Shown: positions 19,724-49,142, numbered from the stretch's first letter. The stretch is 64,000 bases of DNA from an uncultured bacterium (GCA_963720265.1 CAVRET010000001.1:325916-389915), one strand, 5' to 3'. Numbers and translations: made by a program. Notes: generated from the letters alone by a model not told the origin.

Positions 19724-22700
19724 GTGATTTATCGATCTGGGATCAGACGCATAAATAAATCAGTTTTACCTCGTATGCGCCTGACTCTGATTGGAGTGGG
19801 GCTGCTTTTGGGTAGTTTGGCAATGCTTGTGCCAAGTACGTCTAAGGCTTCGAGCAGCAGCGTCAATGGAACCATTAATTTCCAGGGGCGGCTGCTGACG
19901 GCGGCCGGGGCGGTAGTGCCAGATGGCAGCTACAACATTGAGTTCAAGCTCTACAAGAACGGTAATGGGCAGTCGGCCGGCGATAGTGGGGGGAGTCCAG
20001 CTGGCAGCCTCTTGTGGACTGAAGACTGGGTCTACGGTACTGGTTCGCCGGACAACCGGGTGGTGGTGAAGAACGGGTACTTCTCGGTCCAGCTTGGAAG
20101 TATTACTGCGCTGCCGAGCAACCTGTCGCTCGATGAAAGCAACTTGTGGCTCAGTATGAACATTGAGAACCCAACCGGCGCGACGTTGCAGTGTACTGGT
20201 TTTTCAAGCAACTCCCCAACCGGCTGTTCCGGCGGCGATGGTGAAATGACGCCGATGAAGCAACTGGGTGCGGCGCCGTATGCGATTAACGCGGCCAACG
20301 CCAACCAAGTTAACAGCTACGGTTTGAGCAACAACTTTTTGGATCTGGCGGCACCCTCAGGCATTAGCGCTGCTAACGGCAGCGCCGGTTCAGTGCCGGG
20401 TACAGTGTGTTACACGGTGACGGCGACCAACGCCAACGGCGAAACCGTTGCCACTAATAATTCCGGTACCGTGACTCCGGGCGGCACGCATGTAGTGAAC
20501 GTAACCTGGTCGCAAGTGACCGGTGCTACAGGATACAAGATTTACCGTAATACGAGCTGTTCGTTTACCAGTGGCTCGCTGTTTTTGACTACTATTACGA
20601 GTGGTTCCATTACGACCTACCAGGATACGGCAACTTCGACCAGCGCCGGCTTACCGCCAACCACGGTGACCGGCGGTACGGTTGATATCCAGGCCTGGAG
20701 CTCACAGACGTCCAACCTGTTGCAGCTGCAAAACTCGTCCGGTACTAATGTGTTGAGCGTGGACCCATCTGGAGACACAACTGTGGCAGGTGTTATTACG
20801 GTGGCCGGCGGCGCGGCGCAAGACATTACAACAGCCGGCGCTGCGACTGCTACAGCTATTACTATCCAACCCGGTACCTCGAGTACCGCCAGCACCGGTG
20901 CGACTCTCAACTTGCAAGGCGGTAATGATTCTGGAACTTCGGGCGTAACGGCCGGCACGGTGGCGATTCAGGGCGGCAATGCAACTGGAGCCAGCGGCAC
21001 TCGAAATGGCGGCAACGTCACTATTGACGCCGGTACGGGCGCTAACGCAAACGGTAGTATCACTATCGGTGGCACAGCATCCGGCACCAATACAACTGGA
21101 GTTACGGTGAATGTGGCCACTGATGCCACCGCTTCGGGCAAGACCGACACGATTAATATTGGAACGGGCAACGGAGCCGGTGGTTCGGGTACCGCCAAGG
21201 CAGTCAATATCGCGAGTGGTACACCCGGAGGGACCGAGATAAATACCGTATTAATCGGGTCGCTTGCAAATGCCAGTACTACTACCCTTCAAGGCGGCAC
21301 CTCTGGCACGGGCATCGCGCTCACCACCGGCAGTGGCGGCACAATAGCGCTAACTGCGGCTGGGGCCGGCAATGTGACGGTGACAGCAACCAACGCGTCG
21401 CTCAACTCAAGCGGCGTGCTGAATGTGGTGGGCGGTTCAGCCGGTTTTAATATCGGTGGATCGACTACGACCGGGAATTATCTGCGTAATAATGGTACGA
21501 ATTTTGTGTCGAGCGCCATCCAATACGGCGACATCCCGACCTGTGGCGGCACCTGCAACTACATTGGCAACCAGATTACGACGCAATCCAACGCTAACTT
21601 TAATATCAAAAGCGCGGCCTCAAGCTCCGTCGGCGGTGCCATTCAGGGCGCCACTAGCCAGACGGCAGATCTGTTTGATCTGCGAGATTCGACTGGCGCT
21701 AATCTTTTGAGCGTTAGTGCGGCCGGGAACCAAGAACTTGGTGGCTACGAAGACGTGTCCGGCATGGGTGGGTTTGGCTCGTTTGGGAATTTGCTGCTGC
21801 AATCTGAGGCCCTGGATCAGACGGGCGACTGGACGGCTTCCAACATTACGGTGACAGCGAATAACACGGTTGCACCGGACGGCACAACCACGGCCGAGAA
21901 ACTGGCCGCTACCGTCTCGGGTACACACAGCATGACGCAGATTTGTACTACGGGATGCACAACCAACTCGGTTACGTACACTTACAGCATCTGGGTCAGG
22001 GCCGACGCTGCCAATAATCCGACTAACGTTCAATTACGTATTGACTGGAACAATGGTTCAGGCCAAACGGGTACTGCGGCTACGTTCTCCGCTACCACCA
22101 CGTGGCAGCGCTTTAGCGTAACACAAGCGGTAAGCGCTTCGGGCATGGTTTCGGTAACGCCGACCTTGCTAGTAAGCACAAATAGCGTGACTGTTTATGC
22201 GTGGGGCGCACAGTTGAATTTGGGCTCGACTCCCGGCGTGTACGAGCAGACCGTTCTCAGCCAGATCATCGCCGGGGAAGGAGAGGCCCTTAACGGTTAT
22301 CTCACGATTGTGTCGCCGAGCAACGGCGGTATCACGAGGATTGATGGCTACGGCAACATGAGTTTAGCCGGGCAGCTTACTACCGGTGATATGGCTACGT
22401 TGAATACGTATACTACCAGTGACAGCGCACTTCAGGCAGTGCAAGTAGGTTCCGGCTTTACCGTGCCAACGGCCATTATCGACGGCGGCACGTCGCCGGG
22501 GGCAGGGGCGGACTTGCTCCAGCTACAAAGTAATGGAACGCCGGTGGCGCGGTTTAATAACGCGGGCAATTTATTTGTGGCTAGTGCTATTAACACGCAA
22601 ACAGGTGGTGGGACGTTATCGGTTCAGACAACTGGCAACGGTGCGATAACGACCGGCTCCGGACTTCTTACCGACGGGGGCAACCTGACGGTCCAGGGTA

Positions 22701-25700
22701 CGACTACCACATTGGGAGCGACGGGTTCCGCTAATACTTTGGGATTCGCCAACACCACGGCGGCCACGGGTGCAACCATTGATTTTGCCAGCACCTCGGT
22801 CGGCATTGGTAATAGTTTGACCGTCCAGGGACAAACGGGGGCAGCAACAGATGCCGGTGGCGCCGTCAATGTCTACGGCGGTACGGGTGGTACGACTGGT
22901 GGTGGCGGACTCGTGACCATCCAGGGAGGCGCCGCCTCGGCCACGTCGGGTTCGGCCGGCGGCGGCGTTGACATTTATGGCGCCAATGGCACGGGCACAA
23001 GTACTGGCGGCGCCGGTGGCTCGGTTGCGATTCAGGCTGGCAACGGTACGTCAAGCGGCAACAACAGCGGTGGTAATGTCACGCTGCAGGCCGGTAGCGC
23101 CAGCGGGAGCGGAGCGACAGGCAGCGTGGTGGTAAAGAATGCGGCTAACTCGAGCACGGCACTCCAGCTGCAGGACACCGCTGGGGTGGACGTATTGGAC
23201 GGTTCAACCAGCACGACTAATCTAGTATCACAACCGGATATAACCGGCAGCACAGCTTCGAGCTGGGCGGTCAAGAATGGATCCTCAGCACCTGTTGGCG
23301 ATACGTCAAACCCATATGAGACGACCTCATCGATTAAGACGGTTGCTAGTGGTTCTACCGCCTATTCCGGTATGCAGACCTCCACATTTACTTCCGCACT
23401 GGTTCCAAATGACTACTATCAGCTTACTTTTTGGGCCAAGTGTTCGGGTACTATTGGAACGTTTACCTTCGGACGTCAGGACGTGTCGGGCACTGACATT
23501 AACTACACGACGACCACCTGCAACACCACTTGGCAACAGTACTGGGCAACGTGGCAGGCCGGCGGCACGCTGACTTCGCCCAACATTTACATCGACGCCG
23601 GTACTCCGGCCAATGCTACCACGATTTGGGTCGACGGCGTCACGCTCAATCAGGTAGGGGGGCTGGCTACCGGCCCATCCAACTACCAGCCCGGAACGGT
23701 TTATATACCTGGCGTGATCGGCTCGCCGGTGACGTTTGAAAATTCTGCCAACTCAGCCGGCGCGTTCCAGGTACAAAATTCGGCCGGTGCAAACATTTTA
23801 AACGTTAATACCAGCACATCGACCGTCACTGTTGGATCTAGCGGCAACGACAATGTGAGTCTGGCAGTTGATAACACTGACGGGACGGCGGCGATTGAAG
23901 TACGCAGCGGCGGTAGCGCCAGCTACGATACGTTTGTTGGCGTAAATTCCGGTGCCAACAACGCGCTTAACGTCGGTTCGACGCAGGGCTACCAAAATAC
24001 AGGGTTTGGTAATGGAGCGCTTCAGTCTAATTCGACTGGTTCATATAATACTGGCCTGGGGGTTTACGCGCTTAACGCCAACCACAGCGGCTCGGACAAT
24101 ACGGCGGTTGGTAATGGTGCGTTGAACGTAATGAATGGCGGCTCCGATGACGATGCTTTGGGCTTCCAATCGCAATATGATAACTCGAGTGGTAGTTACA
24201 ACGTGTCCATCGGCAGCTACTCGCAGTACTACATCGGTGGCAGCGACAATACTTCATTGGGTTACCATAGCCTTACGAATTCATCTGATACGACCGGCGC
24301 TGATAATACGGCTCTTGGGTACAATGCGGCTAGTACTGACTCGGCTAGCGGATTTGTCAGCGATCTTAATTTGCAGAATGCGACTGCTATCGGATACGAC
24401 TCCGAGGTGCAAGCGAACAACAGTTTTATTCTGGGTGGCCAGGGTTCAAACGCTGTGAACGTGGGCATTGGCACCACGATTCCGCTCAACACTCTGAGTG
24501 TAAGCCCGGCTAATTACAGCACTGGAACGGCCGAAATTGCGAGCACGGGCACTACGGTTACAGGCAGCGGTACCACCTGGACAAACGCCATGGTGGGCAT
24601 GCAATTTATCTTTATGAATGGTGAGACGGGTACGATTACGGCCGTGGCGAGTACAACGAGTCTAACGATTAGCGCATCCCAGGCGGCCACCGGTGGGTTC
24701 ATAAATTACCGCATCCAAACCCCGGGATTTAATGTTACGAGCAATGGCGCTGCGTTCATACAGGCTACTAATTCTTCGGCCTTTGCAGTTCAGAACGCGC
24801 AAGGCGAGAGTGATCTTGTGGCAAATACCACAGACTCAACCAATTTCATTCTCGATTCCGATATGGTGCTAAATAGCGGCACCAGCCTAGTCGATTGGTC
24901 GGCGGTGAGCTCCGCTACAGTGACGCAAAATACAACGCCAACCGATAGTTACCTTGGCAATACCTCAATGAACCTTACTACGACTAACGCGTCTTCGGGC
25001 CAAGGCGCTACCACTACGGCGTTTACGCCCAGTCTGCCAACTGGCAGCGGTACGGTTTATACGGTGTCGTTTGAAGCCATGATGAGCACCGGTACGTATG
25101 CAGCTAGCAACCTAAAGATGATCGCGACCGGCGGCGGTACGCCTTCGTGCACTGGTTCCGCCAGCGAGACGATTAATGCCAACGGTTTCCAGCAAGTTTC
25201 CTGCACCTGGGCGGCTGATTCCGGCACTATTTCAGGCCTTTCCATTCTTGACCAAACCGCCAACGCTATGACCATGTACATCGACGACGTGCAGCTGCAG
25301 ACGGGAACGGCGGCTACAGCTTTTAACCTTGGCACCTTGCAGCTCAAGGGTGTTATAACGAGCCCGGTGGCGGTGCAGAATGTCGTTAACTCCACCACGG
25401 CGCTCCAGGTCCAAAATGCCTCCGGCTTCAATGTGCTCACGGTTGATACTCTCGACAACTCGGGCCAGGGTCAGGTTATTCTGGGGGCTGCCAGTCACAA
25501 TAACGGTGCGCTTGTGTTCGATAACAGTACGAACTCAAACACGGTGTCGCTTGTGAGCGGCGCAACAAGCGGCAGTGGCTACAGTCTGACGTTGCCGACC
25601 TCCGGGCCAACGTATAACCAGTGTCTACAAACCGGCAATTCAAGTACTACGCAGCTACAGTTCGGTCCCTGTGCGACTGCCAACGCCAATTTGACCAAGG

Positions 25701-28700
25701 TAGCTGAATCGGATGAGCACTCCGGAAATGCATTGACCTTTACTCCGTCCAAGATCGGGGACGAGATTGTGCTGTTCTATAGCTCGACAACGGCCAGCGT
25801 TACTGTGTCCGCCATGAATACCACGTCGGGGACGGGCGTTACTACGTGGACAAAAGTCACCAGTGCAACTGGCACCAAAGGTGACGTTGACATGTGGATG
25901 GGCCAGGTGACCGGAACCGGTTCAACGACGGTCACGGCGACTGTAACCGGATCACCATCCACGTTTGAACTGACGCAGATCGAGTATACGACCTCCGGTG
26001 TCAGCTCAGGTACGGTGTGGCAGATGACAAATTCCAACACCAACTACATTACGGTCGCGACCACGACGGTGACCTGGCCAAGCTTTGTGGCCCCAGCCAG
26101 CCAGGAGGCCTACGTTGGGTACGATTCAAACGTTGGTGGGACACCTAGCACATCTGGAACGGGTCCGTTTACGTACACCCTTACCGGCGCCAACAACATG
26201 TGGGTGTATGATTCGTCGACCGTATACGGGTCAACGTATGCGCCGACGACAACTGTGGCCTCATCGTTCCCGGAGACCATAGGCGGACTACTTATCGCGT
26301 ACAATCCTTCGTCCATCTCCAATTCCACTGCTACACAGGTAGCTAATTTCAATGTCCAGGCGGCGACGAGTGGATCGGTGGCGGGCTTGCTGCAGGCGAA
26401 TGCAGCCGGTAGTGGTGACATACTGGATCTGGAAAATGGCAGCGGCAACCTGGTCGATAACGTCACGAGCAATGGTGTGCTCCAGGTGCAAAGCGCCAGC
26501 GGCGTGAATGTGCTAACGGCTGATAATACGATTGACGCCGTGACGCTTGGGGGCGCTGCCGCGCCGAGCTATGTGAATGAGTGGGAGGCCAACTCCACCA
26601 GTGGCTACCCGACGATTTCGGCATTCTCCCCTACCACCATTGGTGACGTTATGGTTGTAGCAATTAAGACCGTGCCGGGGAACAAGGTTACGTCGGTGAC
26701 GGATACAGATGTGAGCGCCTGGCACTACGTGACGTATAACAACGGAAACGTGCATGAAGAGTTGTGGTACGGCACGATTACCTCAACGGCGTCAACTACC
26801 ATGACGTTTAACAGCATCTCCGGAACGCCTTGTACGGCCGGCGTGAGCTGCGAAATTGTGGCCGAGGAATTCACGGCCGGTTTGGGCGCTAATACTAACT
26901 GGTTTGCCACCACGAGCAATACGACAACAACCGGTTCGCCCTCCTCGACCATTTCTTTCCCGTCTCTTAAGGCCACCGTTACCAACGGCTTGTACTGGGG
27001 CTTCGCATATTCGGGCGGTACGGCTGGCAGCTGTATAACCGGCGGCTTTACTTGTCTCACTACCCCCAAGGGTAACGACGTGATTTATGACCCGACAATG
27101 GTGAATGGCACTACGTATTCTCCAACCGCCAACAATACTAGCAACGTTTACGACACGCTTGGCATGATTTTGGTGGCCTCTACCTCGAACCTTAACGTGG
27201 TTGGCACGACCCAGTTGAACGGTGCCGTGACATCACCGGTGGTATTCGCCAATTCTGTTAATTCCGCGACTGCATTCCAGATCCAAAATGCTTCTGGTGC
27301 GGATGCGTTCTTGGTCGACAATACCAACAGCGGCCTGGTCCAGAGCGATGACACCCTGCAGATTGGCCCGGGATCTCCTGGTACTACGACGCCGAAATTC
27401 CTCTACCTGTCGGATGTGACCTCAAATGGAGCCGGTAACCCACTCATTATTGGCCAGTGGAATAGTCCCGGTAACTGGGGCATTGGGCCAAATAGCAACG
27501 CTAATGACAATACTCTTAGGCTTGGTGTGACGACCGCCAATGGTGTGAACACTTGGAGTACAACGCAGAACGTCAGCCTGCTCGTGGCCGGTACGCTGGC
27601 GGTTCAGCCCACGTCTGGCAATGATTCGACTTCTGCCTTCCAGGTGGCGAGCTCAGCTGGTACTAACCTTGTTAACGTTGACACTGCAAATGGCAACGTT
27701 AATCTGGGCATTAGCAGCTCAACGCCGGCGCTTGGCGATACTGCCGGATCCGGGACTGCTGATACGGTATATGCGAACACGATACACGCGGGCAGGTTCC
27801 AGGCTAGCTATACCGGTCCAATCACTTCTATTTCGGCATACGTCGGTCAAGGCGGTCTTGATGGCACCAACAAGTTGTACCAGGTTGCACTTTATACGGA
27901 TACCACCTGTTTCGGTCATCAATGCCCGGGGACCTACATTGCCTCAAGTGCGCAGGGCACCTTATCGGGTTCAGCCACGTGGGATACGGCAGCTGTCTCG
28001 GCCACGGTTACGGCCGGCACATATTATTGGCTGGCATATACGTCAAATTCAACGATTACCAATGACAACACATTGTCATATAACACGGCTGCAGCCGGCT
28101 CTCTAGATGAAGAAACGGGTTTCACATTTGGGAGCGGCCCCTCGAATGGTTTTCCAACAACATTCGTATATCAGCCGCCTCAAGCGGGGTACTCGTACAG
28201 TATTTATGCAACGTACGGTTCCGGTTATGCGACTACGATAAATAGCAGCGGAACCTTGACTCAAAACGCCGCCGCGGTGTTTAAGGATGAGACGAGCTCG
28301 GCCACCGCACTCCAGGTGCAAAACACCGATGGTGAATCGGTATTCCAGACCGGGACCACTCAAGCGGTTGATGGTATTACAAATTACGTCGCCGATTCTG
28401 AATTCGCGCTTGGCAGTGGTGCTTGTCCGCTCACCGACTGGTCTGTCGTGGGCTCACCAACTACTTGTGCCCAAAATACGACTGCGGCGAATAGCTATGA
28501 GGCCGACACGTCCTTGCAGCTCGTAACCACGGCGTCGGCTGGGCAAGGCGCATCTACCAGCACCTTTACCGCCACCCCAACCACTACTTCTAGTGGCCAG
28601 GGTTCAATCTGGACAGTGTCATTTTATGCTGAGCAGACGAGTGGTACTACTCCGATTACAGGTGCCAACCTGACCGCGGCGACGACGGGTGTCGTGAGCT

Positions 28701-33103: not shown

Positions 33104-33113
33104 TTAGGGTATG

Positions 33114-33719
33114 CTAGTTTTTATCCGGGGCCAGGTTATCAACAATTGACCGCATCGCATCCGCACCGATTGGCTTTGGAGCATTGATGAGGATCCAGGT
33201 ACCATCATTGGTAAACAGCGCTCCGGTGGTACGGTCAACAAGATCCGAAATGTAGGCGTGGCCGTACTCGTTATTGTAGACGGCATCTGCCTTTAGTGTG
33301 CTGGTGTCGAAACCTGGCGGGATCGCTTCCTCGGTAAACGCTAGCGTGTTACCGGCTGAATCCTCCATGCCGAATTCGAGTACGTTGTCTTGATAGTCGA
33401 CGGTACCGGCTTCGAGATTGAAATTGGAGGTAAAGTTTGGTTTAAAGTAGTAGAGTGTGAAGCCGGAAGCTTGGTTGACGGCGGATTGCGGAAGGGCGTC
33501 GGGTGGTTGTTTGGGCGACTGGGCAGGGATGAGAGCAAAGGCTGAGCCGACAGCTGCCAGCGCTATCACGATGGATCCGGCAACTATGAGAGATTTTCTC
33601 GAGGGCACACTGATGTGCGGCAAGGTGAAACGGCGAGCTGCATTTCTCCCCCGTTTTAGCATTTTGAGCCTTTGCTCTAGTTCTTCTGGTGCTCGTTCGG
33701 GTATAAAACGCTTGATCAT
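33114..33719 (-). CDS. Small membrane-anchored partner protein convergent with giant gene 1 (N-in, single TM, extracytoplasmic domain).
   Basis: Start set at MIKRFIPERAPEELEQRLKMLKRGR; the longer ORF extension is GC noise. TM segment LIVAGSIVIALAAVGSAFALI. The N-terminal 25 aa are near-identical to those of 49156..49770. Confidence 0.65.
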   Translation of the reverse strand: MIKRFIPERAPEELEQRLKMLKRGRNAARRFTLPHISVPSRKSLIVAGSIVIALAAVGSAFALIPAQSPKQPPDALPQSAVNQASGFTLYYFKPNFTSNFNLEAGTVDYQDNVLEFGMEDSAGNTLAFTEEAIPPGFDTSTLKADAVYNNEYGHAYISDLVDRTTGALFTNDGTWILINAPKPIGADAMRSIVDNLAPDKN

Positions 33720-33818
33720 GCTTACTAGATTACACGAAATGGCGGGCGCGGCCAGTGGCGGAGTTTGGACGGCTTTAAGCGTAAGGAGTATATTCAGAAT
33801 ACTAATGTGAGGTGAGGC

Positions 33819-34682: not shown

Positions 34683-34712
34683 AACAGCCCGCCTGAACCG
34701 GCGGGTCTTTGC
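34683..34712 (+). terminator. Intrinsic terminator after 33819..34547.
   Basis: cccgcc-tgaa-ccggcggg hairpin followed by tctttgcttttg. Confidence 0.55.
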
Positions 34713-34833
34713 TTTTGAAAAGTGTGTTGTGTATTTTGCTAGTTGATTTGTGTGAATTTCTAAAAACCAGATATGGGCGTGATTGTGCAACATGACAATT
34801 ATTCACACAGTTTTCGATGTGATGAAAATGCCT

Positions 34834-34861
34834 TTGCGATGGTAAAATTTATTACTATAAT
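34834..34861 (+). promoter_or_regulatory. Strong sigma70-type promoter candidate for giant gene 2.
   Basis: TTGCGA - 16 nt - TATAAT inside an AT-rich 200-bp leader (34700-34910) in an otherwise GC-rich region. Confidence 0.45.
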
Positions 34862-34910
34862 GCTTGCGCTTTGTGAGGCTGGCATGTAAAATTAACAACG
34901 TATGTAGTTT

Positions 34911-40900: not shown

Positions 40901-43900
40901 CACATTCCCGTCGTTAACTGCTACTCAGACCGGCCAAATGTACTGGGGATACATGGGTGCCGAGCGTGTTGGGGCGGCCGGCAGTTACCCCGGTTTCTCG
41001 TACGTTCCTACCGGCTACCAGAATGTCATTGGCTACGATACAGATTTAGCTGAGGGTACGGTGTACACTCCGACAGCGTCCCAGTCGCCGGCCGGCACTT
41101 CGCTTGGCTCGGCGGTCATAATTTCGGTCACAGACGGTAACGCCCTGACGGTGAATGGGGCGGAGACCATTACCAACACAAACTCCATCAACGCCTTGCA
41201 GGTGCAAAACTCCGCCGGCACCAGCCTGCTGGGCATTGACACGGTTAACAGCCAGGAAACCATCGGCACCTCCGACACCACCACCTTCGGCAACACCTAC
41301 GATGCGGCTACCGCTCCCGAGGGCGGATTTGGCGCCGGCTACTACTGGGATGGCGTAAGCCAACAGGAACTCGTAGCGCAATCGTTTACGACTGCCGGAG
41401 GCGGGCCCTTATCTTCACTTTCGACTTATGTTGGCACCAACGGCATATCGAGTACCAACAAGCTTTACCAGATGGCAGTGTACTCTGACAACGCCGGCCA
41501 GCCGGGAACGTACATTGCGTCAACTGCCGTGGGCAATCTTGGTTCGTCAGCCGGTTGGAAAACCCTGCCCATTACGGCTACCTTGGCGTCGGACACGACC
41601 TATTGGCTCGTCTATTGGACGAACGTGAATGACAACAACAACAACGGTCAGGATATTATCAACACCTTGCGCGGTACATCCAATACCCAAATGTGGGGCA
41701 CTTATGAAAACTGGCAATGCTCGAGTGGTTGCGGGTCTAGTACCAATGGTATGCCAAATACCTATCCCACCAGCGGCAACAATACTACCAATGGCACCAT
41801 CGCCAGCATATATGCCACGTTCGCGAACAACTTGCCGGCATTGCAGATTGATTCCGCTGGCAATAGCATCCAGGATGGCACCGCTTTGTTCCAATCCCAA
41901 ACTGACTCTGACACCGCCTTGGTCGTCAATAACGCCGACGACCAGCCGGTACTGCAGGTGGCCACCACATTCAACGGCGTGGGCGTAGACTGCTCGCCGG
42001 ACGGGAACTACAACTTGACGGTGTGCGCCGGCGGCAATGGTAACGGCGGTGGTTTGTCTGACCTCGGCTATTCGTACCAGCTGCTGAACGTCCAGAACGA
42101 TGGCAACACATATTTGGGCGTCGACAGTATTAACGCCGATGTTCAATCGGGTGATTTGTCAGTAGGCAACTCGGTGAATAATCTCAACGGCCCCGGACTG
42201 TTGGTAAGCGACAACTTCGAGAGTGGGAACTTCAGCCTGTGGAGTGGCGGCTCATCCGGCGGTGAGTCCGTAACTACGTCTGAGGCTCACAGCGGCCGAT
42301 ACTCGGCCGAGACCAACGTGTCGAGCTCCACCGGCTATGCGCGTACCAGTTTCTCTTCTACCTCCACGACGTTTACTCTCAATGCCTGGGTCTGGGCACA
42401 CGTACTGCCAACGTCGGGTGAACTGCCATTGTTTACCTTGTACCAGGCGTCCACCCCAACCAACAAAGTCCAGCTGTACACGGATCAGAATGGATGCCTT
42501 GGCGTTATAAATGGTACGACCGACCTTGGCACAGACTCGTGCGGAACCTTTATTGGCGATGATGATTGGAACAACATCGCCATATCCATAAATCGCACTA
42601 CCGGTGAGATTGCACTCTACGCCGGCCTCGGTTATATGTACTACGGAGCTCAGGGATCAGACTATACCGGCCTCACTATCGGCTCGGGCTGGGACACGCT
42701 GGATATGGGTGTCACAAGCAGTAACACGGGGCAGTACTGGGTTGACGACCTGGCGTTTGGCACCGGCATTACGCCTTCTCTGGCCAACGGCCTCACCGTG
42801 CAAGATTCGCTTCACGCCAGTGGTAGCGCTACGTTCGGCGGCCAGGTTTTGGTGCAGCCGGCGTCGAACTCTGCCACCGCCTTCCAGGTCCAGAATGCCA
42901 GCGGCTACAGCGTATTGAGTGCCGACACTTCCAGCAACTCGGGGCAGGGCCAGGTGGTCTTGGGCAGTTCCAGCAATAATAATGGGACGCTGTTGTTTGA
43001 TAATTCGGCCGGTTCGAGCCAGGTGGGACTAGCTGTAACGTCGTCGAATACCAACACCTACACACTCGACCTGCCGATTGCCGTGCCTAGCACAAACCAG
43101 TGCCTGTTGTCCGGCTCAAGCACGCCGACACAGTTGACGTTCGGGTCGTGCGCTAGCGGGAGCGCGGGCATCAACAACCAAACCACGACCCAATCGAACG
43201 CCAACTTTAACATTCAATCGGCCGGGGCAGCGGACGTGGGCGGTGTTATTCAAGGTGCCAGCTCACAGACGGCCGACTTGCTTGACCTGCGCGATTCGGC
43301 TTCCGGCAACCTGGCAGTGGTGAGCGCGGCCGGCAACGAGGAGAGTTTGGGCTACATCGACAACGCCGGCATTGGCGGGATTGGCCAGTATGGAAACCTA
43401 CTGCTTGACAGCGAACAATTGGACCAAGGCGGCGTGTCGACGCCGCCTTGGTCGACCAACAGTGCGTCGTTGGTAGTAACTGCCAACAATACGACGGCAC
43501 CGGACGGCAATACCACAGCCGAGAAGCTCGCCGGTACTGGAAACGTGAACATTTCGCAATCTGAATCAACCTCCGCTGTCGCAACCACGTACACGTTTAG
43601 CGTGTGGTTGAAGCAGTCGAGTGGGGCGGGCACTAGCGGCTTGTGTATTTACAGCACCGCCGGCACTCCGTCGAGCTGTACGGCTACCGCGGTAACGCCC
43701 AATTCCACCGACTGGCAGCGGTTTAGCGTAACGCAAGCTGTAACCGGCAGCCCAACGGCGATTACGGCGGAGATTTTGCCGGGCAACGGCTCAACGGCCA
43801 CGATTTACGCCTGGGGCGCGCAGCTGGTGGTAGGCACGACTCCGGAAGTGTACACCCGCACTACGGCGGCGGCTGTTGCGGCTTCAAGCGGTGTGGTGAC

Positions 43901-46900
43901 GAACGGCGGTGTACTCATTAATAGCCTTAGCTCGAGCGACACCCCGGTTACCGTTAATAGCAGTACCGGCGTGAGTACGCTCAAGATTGCGGACAGCGGT
44001 GCGACAACGTTTAAATCGTCGACCAATTCCACCACCGCCTTCCAGATACAGAATGCATCAGGTGAGGCTTTGCTTACGGCCGACACTACCAATACGGCAC
44101 TAGTTCTGGGTCAGGACAATACGCCCACCGATCTCACCGTCCGCGGTGGCGCCGCCAGCGGGCCAAATGTGGATGGCGGCGACATTACCTTCCAAGCTTC
44201 TAACGGCACTGGTGCTGCCGGCTCTGGTTCGCTCATCTTCCAAACTGCTCCGCCGGCCGGCGGGGGTGTTACCGAAGACAATTCCGGGACCTCAACCGCC
44301 AGTGCGTGTTCAACAGCCACCCTTAGCTTCACTACCGGATCCGGCTCAAACCGCTTGCTGCTCGTCGGAGCCGAAACCGGCGCCGGCGAGACCTACACTG
44401 CCGTGACCTACAATGGTACCAGCATGACGCAGCTGTCAACGCAGGACAGCGGGACCACGCACATTGAGCTGTGGTATCTGCTAAACCCTGCGTCAGGGGC
44501 GCATAACATTGTTGGCACCCTATCATCGACCCTGCATGGCTGCACGCTCGACGCAGTCTCATATGCCAACGTCAACCAAGTAACGCCGTTTGGTACGGCT
44601 GCCACTAATAGCGGCACAACTACGGGTTTGCAATCCACGAGCAATACCGTCAGCACCACCAGCGCTGCTCAAGTGGTGTTTGATGTTTTGGGGGCAGACG
44701 TCAGTGAGTCGATTGCACCCGGATCGGGCCAGACACAATTAGTAAACTTCCCGGGCACCGGGGGCTTCTACCCGCTGGGGGAGTCCAGCGCTCCGGGCAC
44801 GGGCGCCGCCGTTAACATGAATTGGGCCGTTAACTCGGCCGATTGGGCCGACATTGGCGTACCCATCAACCCGGTTGCCAATTCCACCGCCGACACCCTG
44901 CAAACCGTTCTGGATCTGGCCAACACGGGTAATGTCGGCATCGACAATTCCAACCCTCAGGAAACGCTCGATGTCGCCGGTACCGCCAATTTCCAGAACA
45001 CCACCAACTCCACCACCGCTTTCCAAGTGCAGAATGCGAGTGGCGCCAACCTCTTGACCGCCGATACGACTAACAACCAGATCCTGCTCGGCTCCGATAC
45101 CAACCTGATCCTCTCGGGGACCACCGCCTACATATCCAACCCTCAGGGCTATGGCGACAGTGAGGCTTTCGGAGCTGGTGCGTCGGTCACCTCGAGTAAT
45201 GCCACCGCCGTCGGCTACAATGCTAGCTCCTATTATGATGGGGCAGCAGTCGGGGATAATGCGGCCGCGGGCGGCTATGGCGTTGCACTTGGATACGATG
45301 CTGCCGCCACCTATGTAGGCACAGCCGTCGGCTCGGAATCGGATGCATCTGGGAACTACAGTACGGCGGTCGGTGGTGGAGCAGTCGCAGGGTCAAATTA
45401 CGCGACTGCGTTAGGCTACCTGGCAGCCGCTAACTCGGCTGACAGTATTGCGCTGGGCGCCGGATCTGTTACTAGCAGCGCGAACCAACTGGTTATTGGC
45501 AGTTCCACTGCCAATGGCGCCTATATTCAAGATGCCTACATCGGTTCGGGTATATCGGACATTGCGCCGCAGAGCATTACCGTGCACGCCACCGGCGGCA
45601 GTGGCAGCAACGTGGCCGGTGCCAACCTTAGCCTGGCCGGGGGTATCGGCACCGGTAATGCCAACGGCGGCAATATTAATCTCCAAGTTGCCAAGCCGGG
45701 GGTCAGCGGCTCGAGCGCTAATACGCTTGCAACCGTTGCATCCATCAGCGGCCTCAATGGCTCAGCGTTATTCCAAAATTCCACCGACTCCACCGCGGCT
45801 TTCCAAGTGCAGAACGCGAGTGGCACAAACCTGTTGGGCGTCGATACGTTCGACAGCACCGTGAGTCTAGGAGAAGCCGGTTCGGTCGGCGGTTCCGTGT
45901 ACGGTAAGACGGACATCGGCGGAACGGCGGGCTTCGGCTACTACGATGGCACCAGCGATGTACTTGCCGCCCAGCAGTTTAAGGCCACTGGAGGCGGTAC
46001 CATCTCGTCGCTGTCAACCTACATTGGTATGGTCAAATCTTCGCCGAACAACCAGGGCCAGATGGCAATCTACGCGGATAACGGCAGTAACGCGCCGGGC
46101 AGCTACATTGCATCCACAGGCGTCCACACGCTCACGGCCAACAGCTGGAACACCTGGTCAATAACCGACGGCACCGCCTCGTTGACAACAGGTAGTGAGT
46201 ACTGGCTGGTATATTGGACAAATGACGATGCCATTGATGGGGACAATGCACAGTACCTTGATACAGGCCAAGCCGGCCAGTTAGGGTACCTTTCCGACTA
46301 TGGGTCAGGCGTTAGCTTCGGCACCGGGCCCAATAACGGCATGCCGGCGACGATCCCTGGCGGAACTGTGCTCTCGGGTGCCTACTTCAGCATCTATGCG
46401 ACCTATGGCGGCTCGACTGCCGTACCAGTTACTATTGGTGCTGACGGCAGTGTGACGGCGCTTGGGGCGGCCACGTTCGGAGATTACCTAGATTCCACCA
46501 CCGCCTTCCAGGTGCAGAATGCGGCTGGGGCCAATCTGCTCGGTATCGACACCTCAGGCGACAATGTTAACGTCGGCTCTACGGGATCCACGGCGCTGGC
46601 CGGTACTATCAACGTCGGCACCTCCACCGGTGCGGCCCAGACCGTCAACGTCGGCTCAAACGACGGGGCATCGGCGACCACAATTCAGGGCGGCACCGGC
46701 AACGTCAACGTACTTTCAACTGCGAACATTACTCTGGGGCAGACCAGTACCAATGCCGGCGGAACGCTGGGCTATACCGGTATTGGTTCCAACGGGAACG
46801 GTTGTAGCGGAGGTTGTAATATTACAGCGTCGATGTTTACAACCACTAGTGGCGGTACCGTTGGGACAATGTCGGTGTACGTTAGCTCCCCGGCCTCGGG

Positions 46901-49142
46901 CGATCATTACCAATTTGCCATCTATAGTGACAATGCCGGGTCGCCGAATACCTACATTGCGTCATCCGCTGTGGGTACCCTCACTTCGGTCGCGGGTTGG
47001 TACACGCTGCCCATTACAGCGACACTCGCACCCAGCACCACCTACTGGATAACGTACGCTGATAATAGTGGAAATGACGGCATTAATTACAATAGCGGCC
47101 CGGCCGGTTATTATGTTTGCAATACCACGTTCACTTTCCAGAGCGGCCCGGATAACGGTTTTCCGGCCTCCTACCCAGGGGGTGGCAGCTGTTATCCAAC
47201 CACCCAGGCCAGCATTTATGCAACTTTCAGTGGTGGTACGCAGTCGGCAGTAACGATTAACAGTCTCGGCAACCTCACCGATACCGGTACGGCCAACTTT
47301 GAGGATACAAACGATTCCACCACCGCTTTCCAGGTGCAAAACTCTTCGAACGCGGCGGTGCTGAATGTGGATACGACGAATCAGGCGCTTAGTGTGGAGG
47401 CGTCGAACTCCTCAAGCACCACGCCGACGCTTAATGTAATTCAATCGGGTACCGGCGACGCCACGCTTTCGATACAGGATGCGGGGGCGAATTTCTACCA
47501 AGGCGTAAATGCCAACAATGGCAATGCCTTCACGATTAACTCCCAGTACGCTGCCACGCACAACTCGGATCTGGGTGAAGATTTCGAGTCCAGCGTGCCA
47601 AACGGCGATGACCAAAACTCCAGCTGGGCTGAGGCAACCGAGTTTACCGCCAGTTCTACCGGGACAATGTCGTCAATCAATGTGGCCTTTGATAGTCGAA
47701 TTAACTCCAGCAGTGTATTTTCGGTCGCTGTTTACTCAAATAACGCCGGCGCACCGGGTACGCTGTTGGGTTCATACAGCGGCACCCAGGTGATTCAGGT
47801 TCCGAACCCGGGGACGCTAAACATCAACTGGAATAACATTACACTGAATTCACCGGTGAGCGTCACGAGCGGTACGATCTATTGGCTCGCCTTCCAGGTG
47901 AACGACTCTTCAACGTTTGATGGCATTACTACTGGCGGTTTAAGCGCGTATCGGAGCGGCATCACCCCCGGGACCTGGGCTAACTGGAGCAGTATGGGCA
48001 CGAGCCAAGGCAATAGTACGGTTATAAACGGCGTGTATGCGGTGATTGATTCCAGTACATTGAGCGATACGTACGCAAACGGGCTGTTTTCGCTATCAAC
48101 GGCGGGTGCCGCGACGTTCCAGGGTGTTGCCGACTCGACCTCGGCTCTGACAGTGAAGAATGCGTCGGGCATACAGGTACTTAATGTCGATACGGCCAAC
48201 AGCAGCATTACGGTTAATAGCGCGGTAAACTCACCGGTGGCGTTCCAGGTCCAGAATCAATCAAATAACGACATTTTGACGGTTGACACAACCGATTCAC
48301 GAGTGGAAGTGGGTCCGAGCGGCGGAGGCACAACCGCTACATTATTGGTGCTGGGCATAAAGACCAGTTCCGGCGACCCAGCCGGTGTGACAGGGGCGAT
48401 GTATTATAACTCGAATACGGGTACATTCCGGTGCTACCAGAACAGTGCGTGGGTGAACTGTATTGCCACCGGACTTGGATCGTACCAGGTGCTCACCAGT
48501 ACCTCTGCCAACAGCACCTATACCACACCGGCCAATACCAAAGCGATTATGGTTGAGATGTGGGGTAGCGGTTCGGCGGGTGGTGGTGGCGGAGGCACTA
48601 CGGGTGATGGAGCTGCCGGTGCAGGGGGTGGGGCCGGTGGATACGCCCGCAAGGTTATCGTGGGTCCGGCCTCAACCTATAAGTACACGATCGCGGCCGG
48701 CGGTACTGCAGGTACAGCGGGTAACAACGCCGGTAACGCTCCGGGTTCCGCGAACTGTTTCGGTACCAACTCGACCGCTTGCAGCTCGCCGATTATTAGC
48801 TGCGCCGCCTCCACAGGCGGCGCCGGCATGGCCGCCGGTACAACCAATGCGGGGAGTACCGGCGGAGCCGGAGGCGCATGCACTGGAGGCGATCTCAACA
48901 CTACCGGGGCAGCGGGGCGAAACGGCTCGAGATGGTCTCAGACCGTGGCCCTATCGGGAGGTGGCGGAGGTACCCTCTTTGGTGACGGCGGATCTGGTAT
49001 TGGGCTGCAAGGGACCGGTATTACCGCTGGTAGTACCGTCTACGGCGCGGGCGGCGGCGGGGGCGTAGTGATCAACAGCGCTACTGCTACGGCCGGAGGT
49101 GCTGGGGCACAGGGCGTGATTATCGTTTGGGAATTTAAGTAA
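34911..49142 (+). CDS. Giant secreted modular surface protein, 4743 aa (alternative ATG start at 34965).
   Basis: Uninterrupted 14.2-kb ORF. Signal peptide MLRISLAFVAVGLVSVSLLTAGTARA. N-domain paralogous to giant 1. Three tandem ~276-aa CBM4_9-like modules (DDTFEGSG...AHGGSYSL...GHVYAFSAWVKA...SGWTQMTG...YLDDVTVTDE) carry a 66-bp perfect DNA repeat. Ancient internal duplication of an ~330-aa segment. 14 or more punctuation motifs. Gly-rich C-terminal tail. Confidence 0.85.
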   Translation: MRNWSLYGARTSRHVVQNMLRISLAFVAVGLVSVSLLTAGTARATSGTINDTMNFQGRLLTAAGAVVPDGNYNIEFKIYKNGDGQSTGDTTGSPSGTLLWTEDWLNNNSVTANTIPVVIKNGYFSVQLGSITTLPSTVTLDESVLWLSMTVAGSAGATSTSCTTFSACNSSGEPEMLPMKSLSAAPYAINAANANTLGGLTSSQFIQNTTSPQSSANIDIASGNAADPAAKLQQASSATAPVLTLELGGSPGVGGDLLDLQDSSTAVLDKFDSSGNLTLGNNSNKTISVAPAASGGGSSLTLMAGNGASGTNAGGNLILEAGASTGGAAGGSIIVKPQTDSTTAFQVENASGAALLTADAANTAIVLGQDTTPTNLTVRGGIASGSNVGGGNITFQASNGTGAAGSGSFVFQTAAPGGGITLDNTSYTGGSGNITLSFTTGSGSNRLLMVQAETNASRSFSGITYNGVSMTQVATENSLTNDDGVGAHVELWYLVNPASGTHNIVATMVGSGAGSLAAASFTNVNQTTPLGTAATGNGTASGTQQSSLSVATSAGQLVIDGIGTDVPSSGVGVDSPPASGQTQLWYSANSPSLYGAAGSTAPGTGSTVFMKWNVTNADWADIAVPINPASNSTADTLNNDLVIANSGNVGIDNSSPQNTLDVSGTARVQSTTNSATAFQVQDASGSSLLDVDTANTVVNVGTAGSTAVNVGGTAGSIGRTSIGSVQDVGANNLIVGYQYTAPSTGSIGSMSAYIGANVQSSPYNQYQFALYSDNGSNAPNAYLASSAVGTEAANTWNTLPISYSVTSGTKYWLVMWTNTTNSADNAPNGDTNVASSYVAYTTGQTFGSGPDNGFPATFPTPTYDASQYPDSVYASYNSTSGPAVTVSSTGTLGVYGSAIFESGSDSTTAFQIQNASAASLFNVDTSNDVVDVGATGTTGPSTTVNIGTSSNAAQTVNLGSTDGASATTIQGGTGNVSINTGAGSGSTGSITVESGNSSGGDSGNITVDTGTNSPGGTVVEDDTFEGSGTGSVDGYTNNDSSVTPTASNTTAHGGSYSLKLTEAGSYWYAFNAGTQSVTPGHVYAFSAWVKAASTSETMSGYLYWACGDDTYHAWGFATAVSSGWTQMTGTLTAPAVNSGCSPGTETVSMGITDNTFGGSSGEIQYLDDVTVTDESLITEPSVDIGTSNAQAVNIGGNNAGQYGPTTVEGGGGISLLAGTGASVNIGTSNSNNVTVGDASDIDSTTLQGGTLGVSINTGAQSGTTGAITLESGNSSGGDSGNVNIDTGTNSPGGTQVQDDTFEGSGSGSMDGYDNNDDGLSAISASNTTAHSGSYSLKVTESSAYWFANTSEDTTVTSGHVYAFSAWVKAASTGESIDANVYWGCSIGGIVQWGSATSTSSGWTQITGTATAPALYPGCIPGDEFAQLTFGGIAGTSGQIEYIDDATITDESSITEPSVNIGTLNAQAVNIGGNNAGQYGPTTVEGGGGISLLAGSGAPITIGTGNSNNVTVGDAYDEDATTLQGGSNGVSINTGDNYDGTGSISITTGNSTSDTAGNITIDTGTSTFSGSQVEDDDFETGTDTFGCWFGCVSATQSAAEAHGGSDSLAVAEDGSGSWGVIEGYPGVAATPGHEYAFTAWVRGTAAETVSADAFFPGSVGPGDTYDTVTDSTSGWTELTGDMTAPVGATNVYLGFTGGTAGGGATDYIDDITITDLGTVSAPNIAIGGTNAQQVTIGNENEGGYTSIYGGGDGISLQTSNGGTVALGTVNQSNISIGAVGSSTEDDVVQIDDTSGGGTSIVDIGGTATNDGSDTASTVNIQGGQTGLVVANAGATLQTYTDSTTALQVQNSSGGDVLNVDTTDGQVTAGNTNTARAEQEWDSHGTNQATLSDAPQADGDLLMLAVSIPSTSVTVSSVSGGGVSSWSNATSYTDSTVGYRTEIWEGTVTGAGAGTITVNYSSTPGGGCELAAQEFSAGVGAGWSVVATGHAVNSSSTTVTFPSLTATQTGQMYWGYMGAERVGAAGSYPGFSYVPTGYQNVIGYDTDLAEGTVYTPTASQSPAGTSLGSAVIISVTDGNALTVNGAETITNTNSINALQVQNSAGTSLLGIDTVNSQETIGTSDTTTFGNTYDAATAPEGGFGAGYYWDGVSQQELVAQSFTTAGGGPLSSLSTYVGTNGISSTNKLYQMAVYSDNAGQPGTYIASTAVGNLGSSAGWKTLPITATLASDTTYWLVYWTNVNDNNNNGQDIINTLRGTSNTQMWGTYENWQCSSGCGSSTNGMPNTYPTSGNNTTNGTIASIYATFANNLPALQIDSAGNSIQDGTALFQSQTDSDTALVVNNADDQPVLQVATTFNGVGVDCSPDGNYNLTVCAGGNGNGGGLSDLGYSYQLLNVQNDGNTYLGVDSINADVQSGDLSVGNSVNNLNGPGLLVSDNFESGNFSLWSGGSSGGESVTTSEAHSGRYSAETNVSSSTGYARTSFSSTSTTFTLNAWVWAHVLPTSGELPLFTLYQASTPTNKVQLYTDQNGCLGVINGTTDLGTDSCGTFIGDDDWNNIAISINRTTGEIALYAGLGYMYYGAQGSDYTGLTIGSGWDTLDMGVTSSNTGQYWVDDLAFGTGITPSLANGLTVQDSLHASGSATFGGQVLVQPASNSATAFQVQNASGYSVLSADTSSNSGQGQVVLGSSSNNNGTLLFDNSAGSSQVGLAVTSSNTNTYTLDLPIAVPSTNQCLLSGSSTPTQLTFGSCASGSAGINNQTTTQSNANFNIQSAGAADVGGVIQGASSQTADLLDLRDSASGNLAVVSAAGNEESLGYIDNAGIGGIGQYGNLLLDSEQLDQGGVSTPPWSTNSASLVVTANNTTAPDGNTTAEKLAGTGNVNISQSESTSAVATTYTFSVWLKQSSGAGTSGLCIYSTAGTPSSCTATAVTPNSTDWQRFSVTQAVTGSPTAITAEILPGNGSTATIYAWGAQLVVGTTPEVYTRTTAAAVAASSGVVTNGGVLINSLSSSDTPVTVNSSTGVSTLKIADSGATTFKSSTNSTTAFQIQNASGEALLTADTTNTALVLGQDNTPTDLTVRGGAASGPNVDGGDITFQASNGTGAAGSGSLIFQTAPPAGGGVTEDNSGTSTASACSTATLSFTTGSGSNRLLLVGAETGAGETYTAVTYNGTSMTQLSTQDSGTTHIELWYLLNPASGAHNIVGTLSSTLHGCTLDAVSYANVNQVTPFGTAATNSGTTTGLQSTSNTVSTTSAAQVVFDVLGADVSESIAPGSGQTQLVNFPGTGGFYPLGESSAPGTGAAVNMNWAVNSADWADIGVPINPVANSTADTLQTVLDLANTGNVGIDNSNPQETLDVAGTANFQNTTNSTTAFQVQNASGANLLTADTTNNQILLGSDTNLILSGTTAYISNPQGYGDSEAFGAGASVTSSNATAVGYNASSYYDGAAVGDNAAAGGYGVALGYDAAATYVGTAVGSESDASGNYSTAVGGGAVAGSNYATALGYLAAANSADSIALGAGSVTSSANQLVIGSSTANGAYIQDAYIGSGISDIAPQSITVHATGGSGSNVAGANLSLAGGIGTGNANGGNINLQVAKPGVSGSSANTLATVASISGLNGSALFQNSTDSTAAFQVQNASGTNLLGVDTFDSTVSLGEAGSVGGSVYGKTDIGGTAGFGYYDGTSDVLAAQQFKATGGGTISSLSTYIGMVKSSPNNQGQMAIYADNGSNAPGSYIASTGVHTLTANSWNTWSITDGTASLTTGSEYWLVYWTNDDAIDGDNAQYLDTGQAGQLGYLSDYGSGVSFGTGPNNGMPATIPGGTVLSGAYFSIYATYGGSTAVPVTIGADGSVTALGAATFGDYLDSTTAFQVQNAAGANLLGIDTSGDNVNVGSTGSTALAGTINVGTSTGAAQTVNVGSNDGASATTIQGGTGNVNVLSTANITLGQTSTNAGGTLGYTGIGSNGNGCSGGCNITASMFTTTSGGTVGTMSVYVSSPASGDHYQFAIYSDNAGSPNTYIASSAVGTLTSVAGWYTLPITATLAPSTTYWITYADNSGNDGINYNSGPAGYYVCNTTFTFQSGPDNGFPASYPGGGSCYPTTQASIYATFSGGTQSAVTINSLGNLTDTGTANFEDTNDSTTAFQVQNSSNAAVLNVDTTNQALSVEASNSSSTTPTLNVIQSGTGDATLSIQDAGANFYQGVNANNGNAFTINSQYAATHNSDLGEDFESSVPNGDDQNSSWAEATEFTASSTGTMSSINVAFDSRINSSSVFSVAVYSNNAGAPGTLLGSYSGTQVIQVPNPGTLNINWNNITLNSPVSVTSGTIYWLAFQVNDSSTFDGITTGGLSAYRSGITPGTWANWSSMGTSQGNSTVINGVYAVIDSSTLSDTYANGLFSLSTAGAATFQGVADSTSALTVKNASGIQVLNVDTANSSITVNSAVNSPVAFQVQNQSNNDILTVDTTDSRVEVGPSGGGTTATLLVLGIKTSSGDPAGVTGAMYYNSNTGTFRCYQNSAWVNCIATGLGSYQVLTSTSANSTYTTPANTKAIMVEMWGSGSAGGGGGGTTGDGAAGAGGGAGGYARKVIVGPASTYKYTIAAGGTAGTAGNNAGNAPGSANCFGTNSTACSSPIISCAASTGGAGMAAGTTNAGSTGGAGGACTGGDLNTTGAAGRNGSRWSQTVALSGGGGGTLFGDGGSGIGLQGTGITAGSTVYGAGGGGGVVINSATATAGGAGAQGVIIVWEFK

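Follow-up and report, generated by a model that had tools for sequence, protein, structure and literature searches.

Two giant genes in tandem, here called A and B, lie on the plus strand of a 64,000-nucleotide stretch of DNA from an uncultured bacterium (GCA_963720265.1, CAVRET010000001.1:325916-389915; hereafter the window, in which all positions are counted). We consider it reasonably probable that their products are giant members of a Saccharibacteria family of Sec-exported, chimeric fibre adhesins resembling the MAT fibres of Bdellovibrio, for which we propose a mode of assembly and of host binding. Their sequences place both proteins in a very large, entirely unannotated Saccharibacteria family, defined by an N-terminal beta-sandwich of ~150 residues after the signal peptide; within it A and B are size outliers, about fourfold above the usual size, ordinary members having about 1000-1400 residues. 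Host attachment or another cell-surface role is the most reasonable reading, as a preliminary description of the window had already proposed for an episymbiont, given the secreted, mosaic, glycan-binding character of the proteins and their Saccharimonadia origin, and A and B are probably host-grabbing adhesins. To that description the present analysis adds the identity of the organism, the huge unannotated family, the link to MAT fibres, the pattern of swapped tips, the status of the genes as size outliers within an island, and a small membrane partner. The genes and their N-terminal features are as follows.

19724..33103, plus strand: putative giant fibre gene A; longest open reading frame (ORF) from GTG, 4459 residues; public call from ATG at 19775, 4442 residues (P0091)
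19775..19855, plus strand: Sec-type signal peptide of A, MRLTLIGVGLLLGSLAMLVPSTSKA followed by SS; the sole transmembrane (TM)-like segment of A
19856..20311, plus strand: MAT_N-like N-terminal beta-sandwich of A (residues 45-196); Bdello_MAT_N E = 1.2e-4; modelled with AF2
34911..49142, plus strand: putative giant fibre gene B; longest ORF from GTG, 4743 residues; public call from ATG at 34965, 4725 residues (P0177)
34965..35045, plus strand: Sec-type signal peptide of B, MLRISLAFVAVGLVSVSLLTAGTARA followed by TS; a hydrophobic N-terminal segment
35049..35501, plus strand: MAT_N-like N-terminal domain of B (residues 47-197); Bdello_MAT_N E = 1.5e-4

The two uninterrupted ORFs, which the preliminary description had read as filling about 43% of the window, were found again at exactly the same coordinates, and together they make up 43.1% of the window and ~4.9% of the 568-kb contig. 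P0091 and P0177 are on record in NCBI/ENA on one contig of 567,794 nt and are nameless singletons at 90% identity. Because chance cannot yield a frame open over such a length, and because matches to domains or paralogues span the whole of A and of B, both are taken to be real coding ORFs. Thr, Gly, Ser, Ala and Asn account for about 60% of the residues in each protein. Judged by eye and by hydropathy, each has the signal peptide described for it earlier, the sole hydrophobic segment being N-terminal and ending in a signal-peptidase-like site (SKA-S in A, ARA-T in B), and hydropathy across the whole proteins gave no further TM-like segment in either. Their cysteines are grouped in close pairs, the pattern to be expected of extracellular modules.

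The N-terminal domain (N-domain) following the signal peptide is carried within the window by A and B alone, and residues 8-196 of A are 58.5% identical to residues 13-197 of B. The preliminary description had likewise given the two proteins a shared domain of ~170 residues, which stands, with a DNA identity of ~80%, which applies only to aligned stretches of 165 nt (77%) and 62 nt (81%), the remainder being unalignable. Its conclusion that the duplication is old needs a nuance, as the N-domains of A and B are 64% identical over a 156-residue core and up to 61% identical to those of other genomes, which makes the two only marginally closer to each other. The AF2 monomer model of the domain is a beta-sandwich, and fold and sequence searches of the PDB found no structural homologue for it.

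Relatives of this domain are abundant in Saccharibacteria. A word-indexed search with the N-domain of A returned only pieces truncated where their contigs end, 27 in all and for the most part bearing the label Saccharimonadales or Patescibacteria, and an alignment profile found 369 stretches in GTDB species genomes, of which the best 79 were examined as loci. All named records among these 79 loci are Saccharibacteria metagenome-assembled genomes (MAGs), with two or three copies in several of the genomes. An exhaustive profile search of representatives clustered at 50% identity gave 27,917 matches at E <= 1e-3, 9,635 at E <= 1e-10 and 1,489 at E <= 1e-30, and among the named matches listed the relatives are called "hypothetical protein" or "exported protein of unknown function" throughout. 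Complete family genes in the loci encode 646-2816 residues; the best 150 representatives have a median of 1078 residues, only two exceed 3000, and the sole one above 4000 is protein A. A few N-domain proteins are labelled otherwise, namely P0004, P0255 (Verrucomicrobiae), P0180 (Candidatus Nitrosopolaris) and P0122 (Candidatus Nomurabacteria); these are on short contigs and are probably mis-binned.

The only model that recurs meaningfully among the N-domains is NCBIfam NF053851, Bdello_MAT_N, which 15 of 17 aligned family N-domains matched when scanned singly (best E = 1.6e-8). The match in B runs from residue 51 to 209 and covers profile positions 15-161 of 162 (E = 1.5e-4). All these scores (21.6 and 22 bits for the two giants) are far under the curated cut-off of 60, so the match indicates distant homology rather than membership, and A and B are outside the Bdellovibrio subfamily as NCBI defines it. 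The N-domain is thus best described as a probable distant relative of the Bdellovibrio MAT base domain at the level of a superfamily, by a one-way model match that is weak but consistent. Searches of the large protein collections gave no bridge to Bdellovibrio, the matches listed being close Saccharibacteria relatives only, so the MAT link stands on the NCBIfam model.

As Caulton et al. (2024, PMC10769870) describe them, MATs have a signal peptide followed by a beta-rich domain that is conserved and ~130 residues long, form an intertwined trimeric fibre and carry diversified tips, one of which resembles Mtd, a target of diversity-generating retroelements (DGRs). They also state that the PDB contains no structural homologue of the MAT N-domain, which is presumed to bind an unidentified element of the predator surface, and Saccharibacteria go unmentioned in the available portions of the text and supplements (PMC10769870). 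No paper in the literature searched joins MAT fibres with Patescibacteria.

The far end of the proteins has the second family hallmark, a conserved pre-tip element (consensus GAMYYN..RCY...W) leading into a C-terminal tip that differs from member to member.

32207..32395, plus strand: conserved pre-tip element of A with GAMYYNTALDEYRCYGDNGEW (residues 4162-4224), 47% identical to B 4455-4517
32396..33100, plus strand: Cys-rich C-terminal tip of A, common to family members in L006 and L069 and to P0176
48273..48461, plus strand: pre-tip element of B with GAMYYNSNTGTFRCYQNSAW (residues 4455-4517), identified by family comparison
48504..49139, plus strand: C-terminal tip of B, Pfam Gly_rich_2 (PF21722), E = 3.8e-9, 37.3 bits against a cut-off of 24.3, profile positions 3-223 of 226

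Behind one and the same N-domain, the 53 complete members carry 12 unrelated classes of C-terminal tip. The class of the B tip is unique among these 53, and that of the A tip recurs in L006 and L069. A PDB search detected no relative of known fold for the A tip, and a word-indexed search found it one database homologue.

Between base and tip, A and B are built from modules that are shared between and within the two proteins at 30-65% identity and in differing order.

21770..22153, plus strand: first CBM4_9-like module of A (residues 683-810); further copies at 23201-23602 (Pfam CBM_4_9, E = 1.4e-7), 24815-25330 and 28250-28906
23981..24523, plus strand: YadA-head-like 14-residue repeats of A (residues 1420-1600), paralogous to B 3397-3557
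25739..27190, plus strand: two class Y beta-rich modules of A (residues 2006-2197 and 2301-2489); third copy at 29174-29743, related Z module at 31406-31843
27794..28273, plus strand: class X beta-sandwich of A (residues 2691-2850), with five paralogous copies in B
29891..30823, plus strand: Kelch-type beta-propeller of A (residues ~3390-3700), with Pfam Kelch and PDB Kelch matches
37938..39995, plus strand: three tandem CBM4_9 units of B (residues 1010-1141, 1287-1419 and 1563-1695); further CBM-like unit at 43377-43778
45099..45581, plus strand: YadA-like head repeats of B (residues 3397-3557), matching the EibD, BpaA, YadA and BpaC heads
45975..48104, plus strand: three consecutive class X modules of B with junction motifs between them (residues 3689-4398); two more X modules at 37122-37601 and 41382-41882

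A junction motif of ~40 residues (DSTTAFQVQNASGxxLLxVDTxN) recurs at irregular spacing, with 12 occurrences in A and 14 in B. CBM4_9-like units (CBM, carbohydrate-binding module) number about four in A and four to five in B, three of the latter in tandem; the class X beta-sandwich occurs once in A and five times in B, and classes Y/Z four times in A and three times in B. Each protein has one YadA-head-like repeat region, and the Kelch propeller is confined to A. Pfam CBM_4_9 (PF02018) exceeds its gathering cut-off in B (76.6 bits, four stretches) and in A (residues ~1166-1293, 32.4 bits against 25.9), as does Kelch_1 (PF01344) in A (36.1 bits against 20.1, three stretches), where the PDB Kelch domains 6n3h and 3ii7 also match. 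The model of module X is weak (pLDDT 55.6, about 75 in the core); it shows likeness to several CBMs, to the lectin-like domain of Cwp84 and to a capsid decoration domain from a cyanophage, and module X is taken simply as a beta-sandwich that may bind carbohydrate.

The beta-rich mosaic of the preliminary description is therefore borne out by Pfam for its CBM4_9 and Kelch parts; its "lectin-like tips" are not, the B tip being Gly_rich_2 and the A tip having no relative of known fold. Signal peptides and CBM_4_9 and Kelch domains also agree with its picture of secreted, beta-rich, mosaic proteins of glycan-binding character, the CBM_4_9 and Kelch domains being what suggests glycan binding. Its list of absent signatures held as well: Pfam, NCBIfam and a motif check found no RHS/YD, RTX, cadherin, nonribosomal peptide synthetase/polyketide synthase or C-terminal LPXTG sortase signal in A or B, and LPxxG-like strings are solely internal (A 1957, B 2499). 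In PDB sequence searches with whole A, whole B, the A tip, module X, the N-domain profile and the profile of the small partner described below, the Kelch and YadA-head matches were the only useful ones.

The YadA-like region of B is the part of the body that speaks most directly to fibre form. Its residues ~3415-3535 align with the solved heads of EibD (2xqh, 3.6e-6), BpaA (3s6l, 1.9e-3), YadA (1p9h, 3e-3) and BpaC (7o23, 0.012). To our knowledge the YadA-head fold is found solely in obligate trimers, and the repeats of B are for that reason the best indirect evidence for a trimeric fibre. The earlier implication that A and B fit no described adhesin family thus needs replacing, as the N-domain appears distantly MAT-related and B has repeats of YadA-head type.

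Each giant gene is followed, on the opposite strand, by a small gene encoding a putative single-pass membrane protein.

33114..33719, minus strand: midS, 201 residues, convergent with A and 11 nt past its stop; cytoplasmic MIKRFIPERAPEELEQRL motif, one TM helix and an outer domain of ~130 residues
49156..49770, minus strand: dnS, 204 residues, paralogue of midS (34% identity, E = 2e-15), convergent with B and 14 nt past its stop

Both proteins start MI[KE]RFIPERxPxELEQRL; a single TM helix comes next, then a conserved outer domain of ~130 residues that carries a [VI]S[EQ]Q..P motif. Longest-ORF calls at 33114-34466 (minus strand, 450 residues) and 49156-50148 (minus strand, 330 residues) are over-extended, the real genes being their 3' parts of ~200 residues; the 330-residue call overlaps tRNA-Tyr (49949-50034) and tRNA-Thr (50112-50187). 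With an iterated hidden Markov model (HMM), 17 of the 49 complete-gene loci with enough downstream sequence proved to have a partner homologue immediately after the family gene, convergent in seven (L006, L010, L027, L056, L059, L068, L069) and on the same strand in ten (L011, L034, L036, L037, L040, L050, L058, L061, L073, L075). Because the two genes are adjacent in either orientation across many genomes, a functional link between them is indicated, and the partner may be a membrane dock or an assembly factor for the base of the fibre, an anchor role suggested by gene adjacency. Searches of Pfam, NCBIfam and the PDB gave the small partner no significant relative, with a faint hint of DUF4245.

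Weaker matches to the partner HMM (E 1e-6 to 1e-25) also occur at ~18.8-20.4 kb, ~9 kb downstream of the N-domain and on the same strand, in at least ten loci (L013, L016, L023, L024, L038, L048, L064, L065, L070, L074) whose fibre gene has only ~1100-1300 residues, which suggests a second conserved arrangement of the partner with intervening genes. Two other elements lie between A and B.

33819..34547, plus strand: ORF of 242 residues, hydrophobic in an N-terminal segment and containing several Cys; among the genes called in the Logan contig described below
34834..34861, plus strand: promoter-like site TTGCGA-16-TATAAT upstream of gene B, by consensus match only

The 242-residue ORF has no family match, and whether it is part of the fibre system is uncertain. 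A terminator-like hairpin at 34687-34706 follows it.

The surroundings of A and B identify the organism. Genes in the window are those of a core chromosome (SecY, S4, RpoA, L17, L13, a holB-like clamp-loader subunit, an RluD-like synthase, TrkA, a WhiB-like regulator and four tRNAs), and the flanks are syntenic with those of L029, a Ca. Saccharimonadia MAG, at 43-80% protein identity (TPR 73%, holB 43%, rluD 59%, TrkA 78%, S9 80%). Sequence comparison thus points to chromosomal DNA of a member of Saccharimonadia, in the Saccharibacteria and the Candidate Phyla Radiation (CPR), and together with the N-domain relatives in Saccharibacteria MAGs this agrees with the episymbiont-type organism proposed in the preliminary description.

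17452..17526, minus strand: tRNA-Thr(GGT), which bounds the island on the left and also stands beside the single family gene of L029
49949..50187, minus strand: tRNA-Tyr and tRNA-Thr(TGT), which bound the island on the right, in synteny with L029

In L029 the slot between tRNA-Thr and the tRNA-Tyr/Thr pair holds a single family gene of 2043 residues and measures about 6.4 kb, versus about 32.4 kb here, where A and B share it with a tailspike-like gene upstream of A, two small genes between them and a third small gene after B. Because the syntenic slot has one gene in L029 and is expanded here, the locus is regarded as a hypervariable island in the Saccharimonadia chromosome.

Several observations weigh against a MAT-like trimeric fibre. 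The Bdello_MAT_N scores of A and B fall far short of the NCBIfam cut-off, and the MAT shaft fragments solved so far in the PDB match neither protein in sequence. Pfam scans of whole A and B and of their C-terminal segments did not find the S74 chaperone-protease (Peptidase_S74, SDxxxK), and A and B would be MATs of the "NS74" type. The YadA-like region of A has no direct PDB match, Pfam matches are absent over about 80% of each protein, and both structure models, of the N-domain and of module X, are of modest or low confidence (pLDDT 67.8 and 55.6); the structure predictions bearing on the trimer question are of monomers only. CBMs and Kelch propellers are typical of monomeric beads-on-a-string proteins. 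The partner, whose anchor role is read from gene adjacency, is not directly downstream of the family gene in 32 of the 49 loci.

These points lend themselves to one serious rival, in which A and B are single extended chains of independently folded beta-sandwich, CBM and Kelch modules, like Bap/SiiE-type proteins or the giants of Vampirococcus, and serve as a fibrous glycan-binding coat or a polysaccharide-scavenging scaffold rather than as a trimeric MAT-type fibre. Such a chain would account for the many tandem globular modules (CBM4_9, X, Y, Z, Kelch), for cysteines that pair within modules, for the self-contained sandwich predicted for module X and for the lack of similarity to solved MAT shafts, and giant surface proteins have already been proposed to form the fibrous coat of a CPR predator. 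It leaves unexplained a conserved N-domain that appears related to the MAT base domain, YadA-head repeats in B of a kind known only from trimers, a recurring junction motif and pre-tip element typical of fibre connectors, and a conserved base with swapped tips across the family; Pfam also found no catalytic glycoside-hydrolase domain in A or B. On balance we regard the monomeric chain as unlikely, and prefer the trimeric, MAT-like fibre.

That the ORFs are falsely long, through chimeric or collapsed contigs or the fusion of shorter genes, is very improbable. Family genes do often break short-read assemblies: all 27 of the first N-domain matches were fragments, and many loci end inside the gene. 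An independent assembly, the Logan assembly of run ERR11523669, yielded 21,043 nt that match the window from 17480 to 38522 with 0 mismatches; this check covers gene A fully and gene B to 38522, the copy number of the 828-nt CBM unit of B lying outside it. The Logan contig stops in the first copy of the sole long exact repeat of the region, 65 nt at 38493-38557 and 39321-39385, whose copies lie one 828-nt CBM unit apart in the tandem CBM units of B; this repeat explains why k-mer assemblies break in gene B, and ordinary reads span it. DNA self-comparison found no internal repeats in gene A, and the other repeats in gene B reach no more than 72% identity over 842 nt and 83% over 78 nt. In view of the mismatch-free contig and the weak internal repeats, collapse or chimerism of A and B is very unlikely. 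Both frames are moreover open throughout with homology-supported modules from end to end, and each gene opens with the family N-domain and closes with a family pre-tip and tip.

The preliminary description had offered phage-derived, fibre-like adhesins as an alternative, and one gene of the island invites the comparison.

17654..19642, plus strand: tailspike-like protein, 662 residues, with DUF5907, BppL_N and pectate-lyase beta-helix matches; upstream of A in the same tRNA-bounded island

This neighbour, which the preliminary description had rightly called tail-fibre-like, has no signal peptide, a phage-fibre-like N-terminus (GSWGNVLNDFL) and a weak match to the PHROG pre-neck appendage family; no homologue of it was found in the 79 related loci. 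With tRNA genes bounding the island, with these PHROG and BppL_N matches, and with a mosaicism in A and B that resembles the evolution of phage receptor-binding proteins, A and B could belong to a Saccharibacteria phage, integrated beside a tRNA, as its tail fibres or receptor-binding proteins, or have been domesticated from such a phage. The proteins themselves point elsewhere. Neither has a PHROG match, searches of 2.9 million IMG/VR contigs and of 50,697 phage genomes (INPHARED) found no copy of their N-domain, neither tip matches any INPHARED phage genome, and the N-domain model has no BFVD viral-structure match at E <= 1e-3. Both carry Sec signal peptides, unlike virion fibres; capsid, terminase and integrase genes were not found in the window, and the same slot in L029 is occupied by a family gene. 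We therefore reject a phage origin, on six negative tests (PHROG, IMG/VR, INPHARED with the N-domain and the two tips, BFVD), the Sec signals and the syntenic chromosomal site, as highly unlikely.

Least probable of all is that A and B are DGR targets, Mtd-like CPR surface proteins with hypermutated tips: DGRs are common in CPR genomes and one MAT tip resembles Mtd, but the window ORFs scanned against Pfam include no reverse transcriptase, a window-wide self-comparison gave no pair of template and variable repeats, and mismatches in the only sizeable repeat are not adenine-biased, and DGR targeting is rejected for this window.

Other features of the window lie outside the island. Just to its left, 12294-16395 encodes a GT2 glycosyltransferase, a pentapeptide-repeat protein and a GH32-like protein; the GT2 and pentapeptide ORFs have no homologues in the syntenic part of L029. 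A WhiB-family transcription factor at 54288-54806 (minus strand; Pfam Whib, E = 9.3e-15) stands in this Saccharimonadia chromosome; WhiB is best known in Actinobacteria, the usual hosts of cultured Saccharibacteria. Near it and the 3' end of an S9-like gene lies a three-copy repeat of 60-93 nt at 85-90% identity (54848-54907, 56446-56538 and 57393-57484).

For the MAT-like fibre that we prefer, we propose the following course. After export and cleavage of the signal peptide, three chains would assemble into one fibre, whose base the N-domain would keep at the surface of the epibiont, where the small single-pass membrane protein whose gene lies just downstream may serve as the dock of the N-domain. 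The carbohydrate-binding modules and the tip would then bind envelope glycans of the host bacterium, which for cultured Saccharibacteria is typically an actinobacterium. The long tail fibres of phage T4 span ~0.055 nm per residue, and a rough scaling on this basis would allow fibres of ~200-250 nm, comparable in length to the diameter of the epibiont cell. The island may have grown by accretion of modules and duplication of the gene from a state with a single gene of ~2000 residues, as in the relative L029.

A wider proposition, which we put forward tentatively and think rather doubtful, is that Saccharibacteria, and possibly CPR epibionts more widely, use a prey-recognition fibre system of Bdellovibrio type, in which a conserved N-terminal base bears an exchangeable adhesive fibre, with the partner as its dock and the giants as cell-length, multivalent versions that would have evolved in the tRNA-bounded hypervariable island for long-range host capture. 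Fibres of MAT type would in that case be general equipment among bacteria living on other bacteria. How CPR epibionts find and hold their hosts is little understood beyond type IV pili and a few adhesins, and here tens of thousands of sequence clusters, all "hypothetical", may be tied to the prey-recognition fibres of Bdellovibrio by base domain and architecture. The family supplies concrete candidates for determinants of host range in Saccharibacteria, the adjacent small membrane protein is a candidate for the surface anchor of MAT-type fibres, and the length series from ~650 to ~4700 residues is natural material on growth by module accretion. Two genes that take up ~4.9% of the contig are also a large investment for a reduced genome.

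Among known systems, the Pam pili of Ca. Mycosynbacter amalyticus (Troman et al. 2026, bioRxiv 10.64898/2026.03.03.709456) are polymeric filaments in which pilins of 38-55 kDa are linked through donor-strand exchange. Like the proposed fibres they are extracellular host-contact filaments, specific to CPR/Saccharimonadia, of Sec-exported, Ig-like beta-sandwich proteins. A and B are single chains of 450-480 kDa, and on that description Pam pili were set aside as a different, polymeric system. Phage fibres and tailspikes share with A and B a segmented, beta-rich fibre logic, exchange of distal modules, carbohydrate-binding modules and, in this island, a tailspike-like neighbour, and differ in that A and B have Sec signals, a chromosomal syntenic locus and no homology to any PHROG, phage genome or viral contig searched.

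The trimeric autotransporter adhesins (YadA, EibD, BpaA, BpaC) have left-handed beta-roll heads of 14-residue repeats, as B does and as the paralogous region of A may, and A and B are also predicted to be long modular adhesive fibres. By Pfam, however, A and B have neither the C-terminal 12-stranded YadA_anchor barrel nor coiled-coil stalk domains, and their polarity is opposite, the conserved and presumably cell-proximal end being N-terminal; an outer membrane is unlikely. In Vampirococcus lugosii, the ten longest proteins have 1392-4163 residues and the giants have been proposed to form its fibrous surface and to act in host recognition (Moreira et al. 2021, PMC8080830). Here too a tiny, reduced genome encodes secreted or membrane proteins of several thousand residues in a similar size range (up to 4163 there). 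The Vampirococcus giants differ in having WD40, PKD, DUF11, integrin and fibronectin domains; a MAT_N-like base and a conserved-base, swapped-tip plan are not reported for them, and their phylum is Absconditabacteria.

The closest comparison is with the MATs themselves, whose fibres are trimeric, as those of A and B are proposed to be. At 4442 and 4725 residues A and B are about four times longer than MATs (~600-1200 residues), score about 22 bits against the 60-bit subfamily cut-off, lack an S74 chaperone-protease and any sequence similarity to solved MAT shafts or tips, and have a body rich in CBM4_9, Kelch and other globular modules. Their organism is a monoderm-type CPR epibiont rather than a Gram-negative predator, and genes of the A/B type are paired with a gene for a small TM protein, a pairing not mentioned for MATs in the available parts of the MAT paper. 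The likeness extends over the whole plan of the protein: a signal peptide directly before a conserved beta-rich N-domain, with a weak, near-full-length Bdello_MAT_N match in A and B and, as far as those parts of the MAT paper describe it, no PDB structural homologue in either system; then a long, fibre-like body; and a conserved base joined to C-terminal tips that are freely swapped across the family. Several paralogues per genome are also found in both, and both occur in bacteria that live by attachment to other bacteria.

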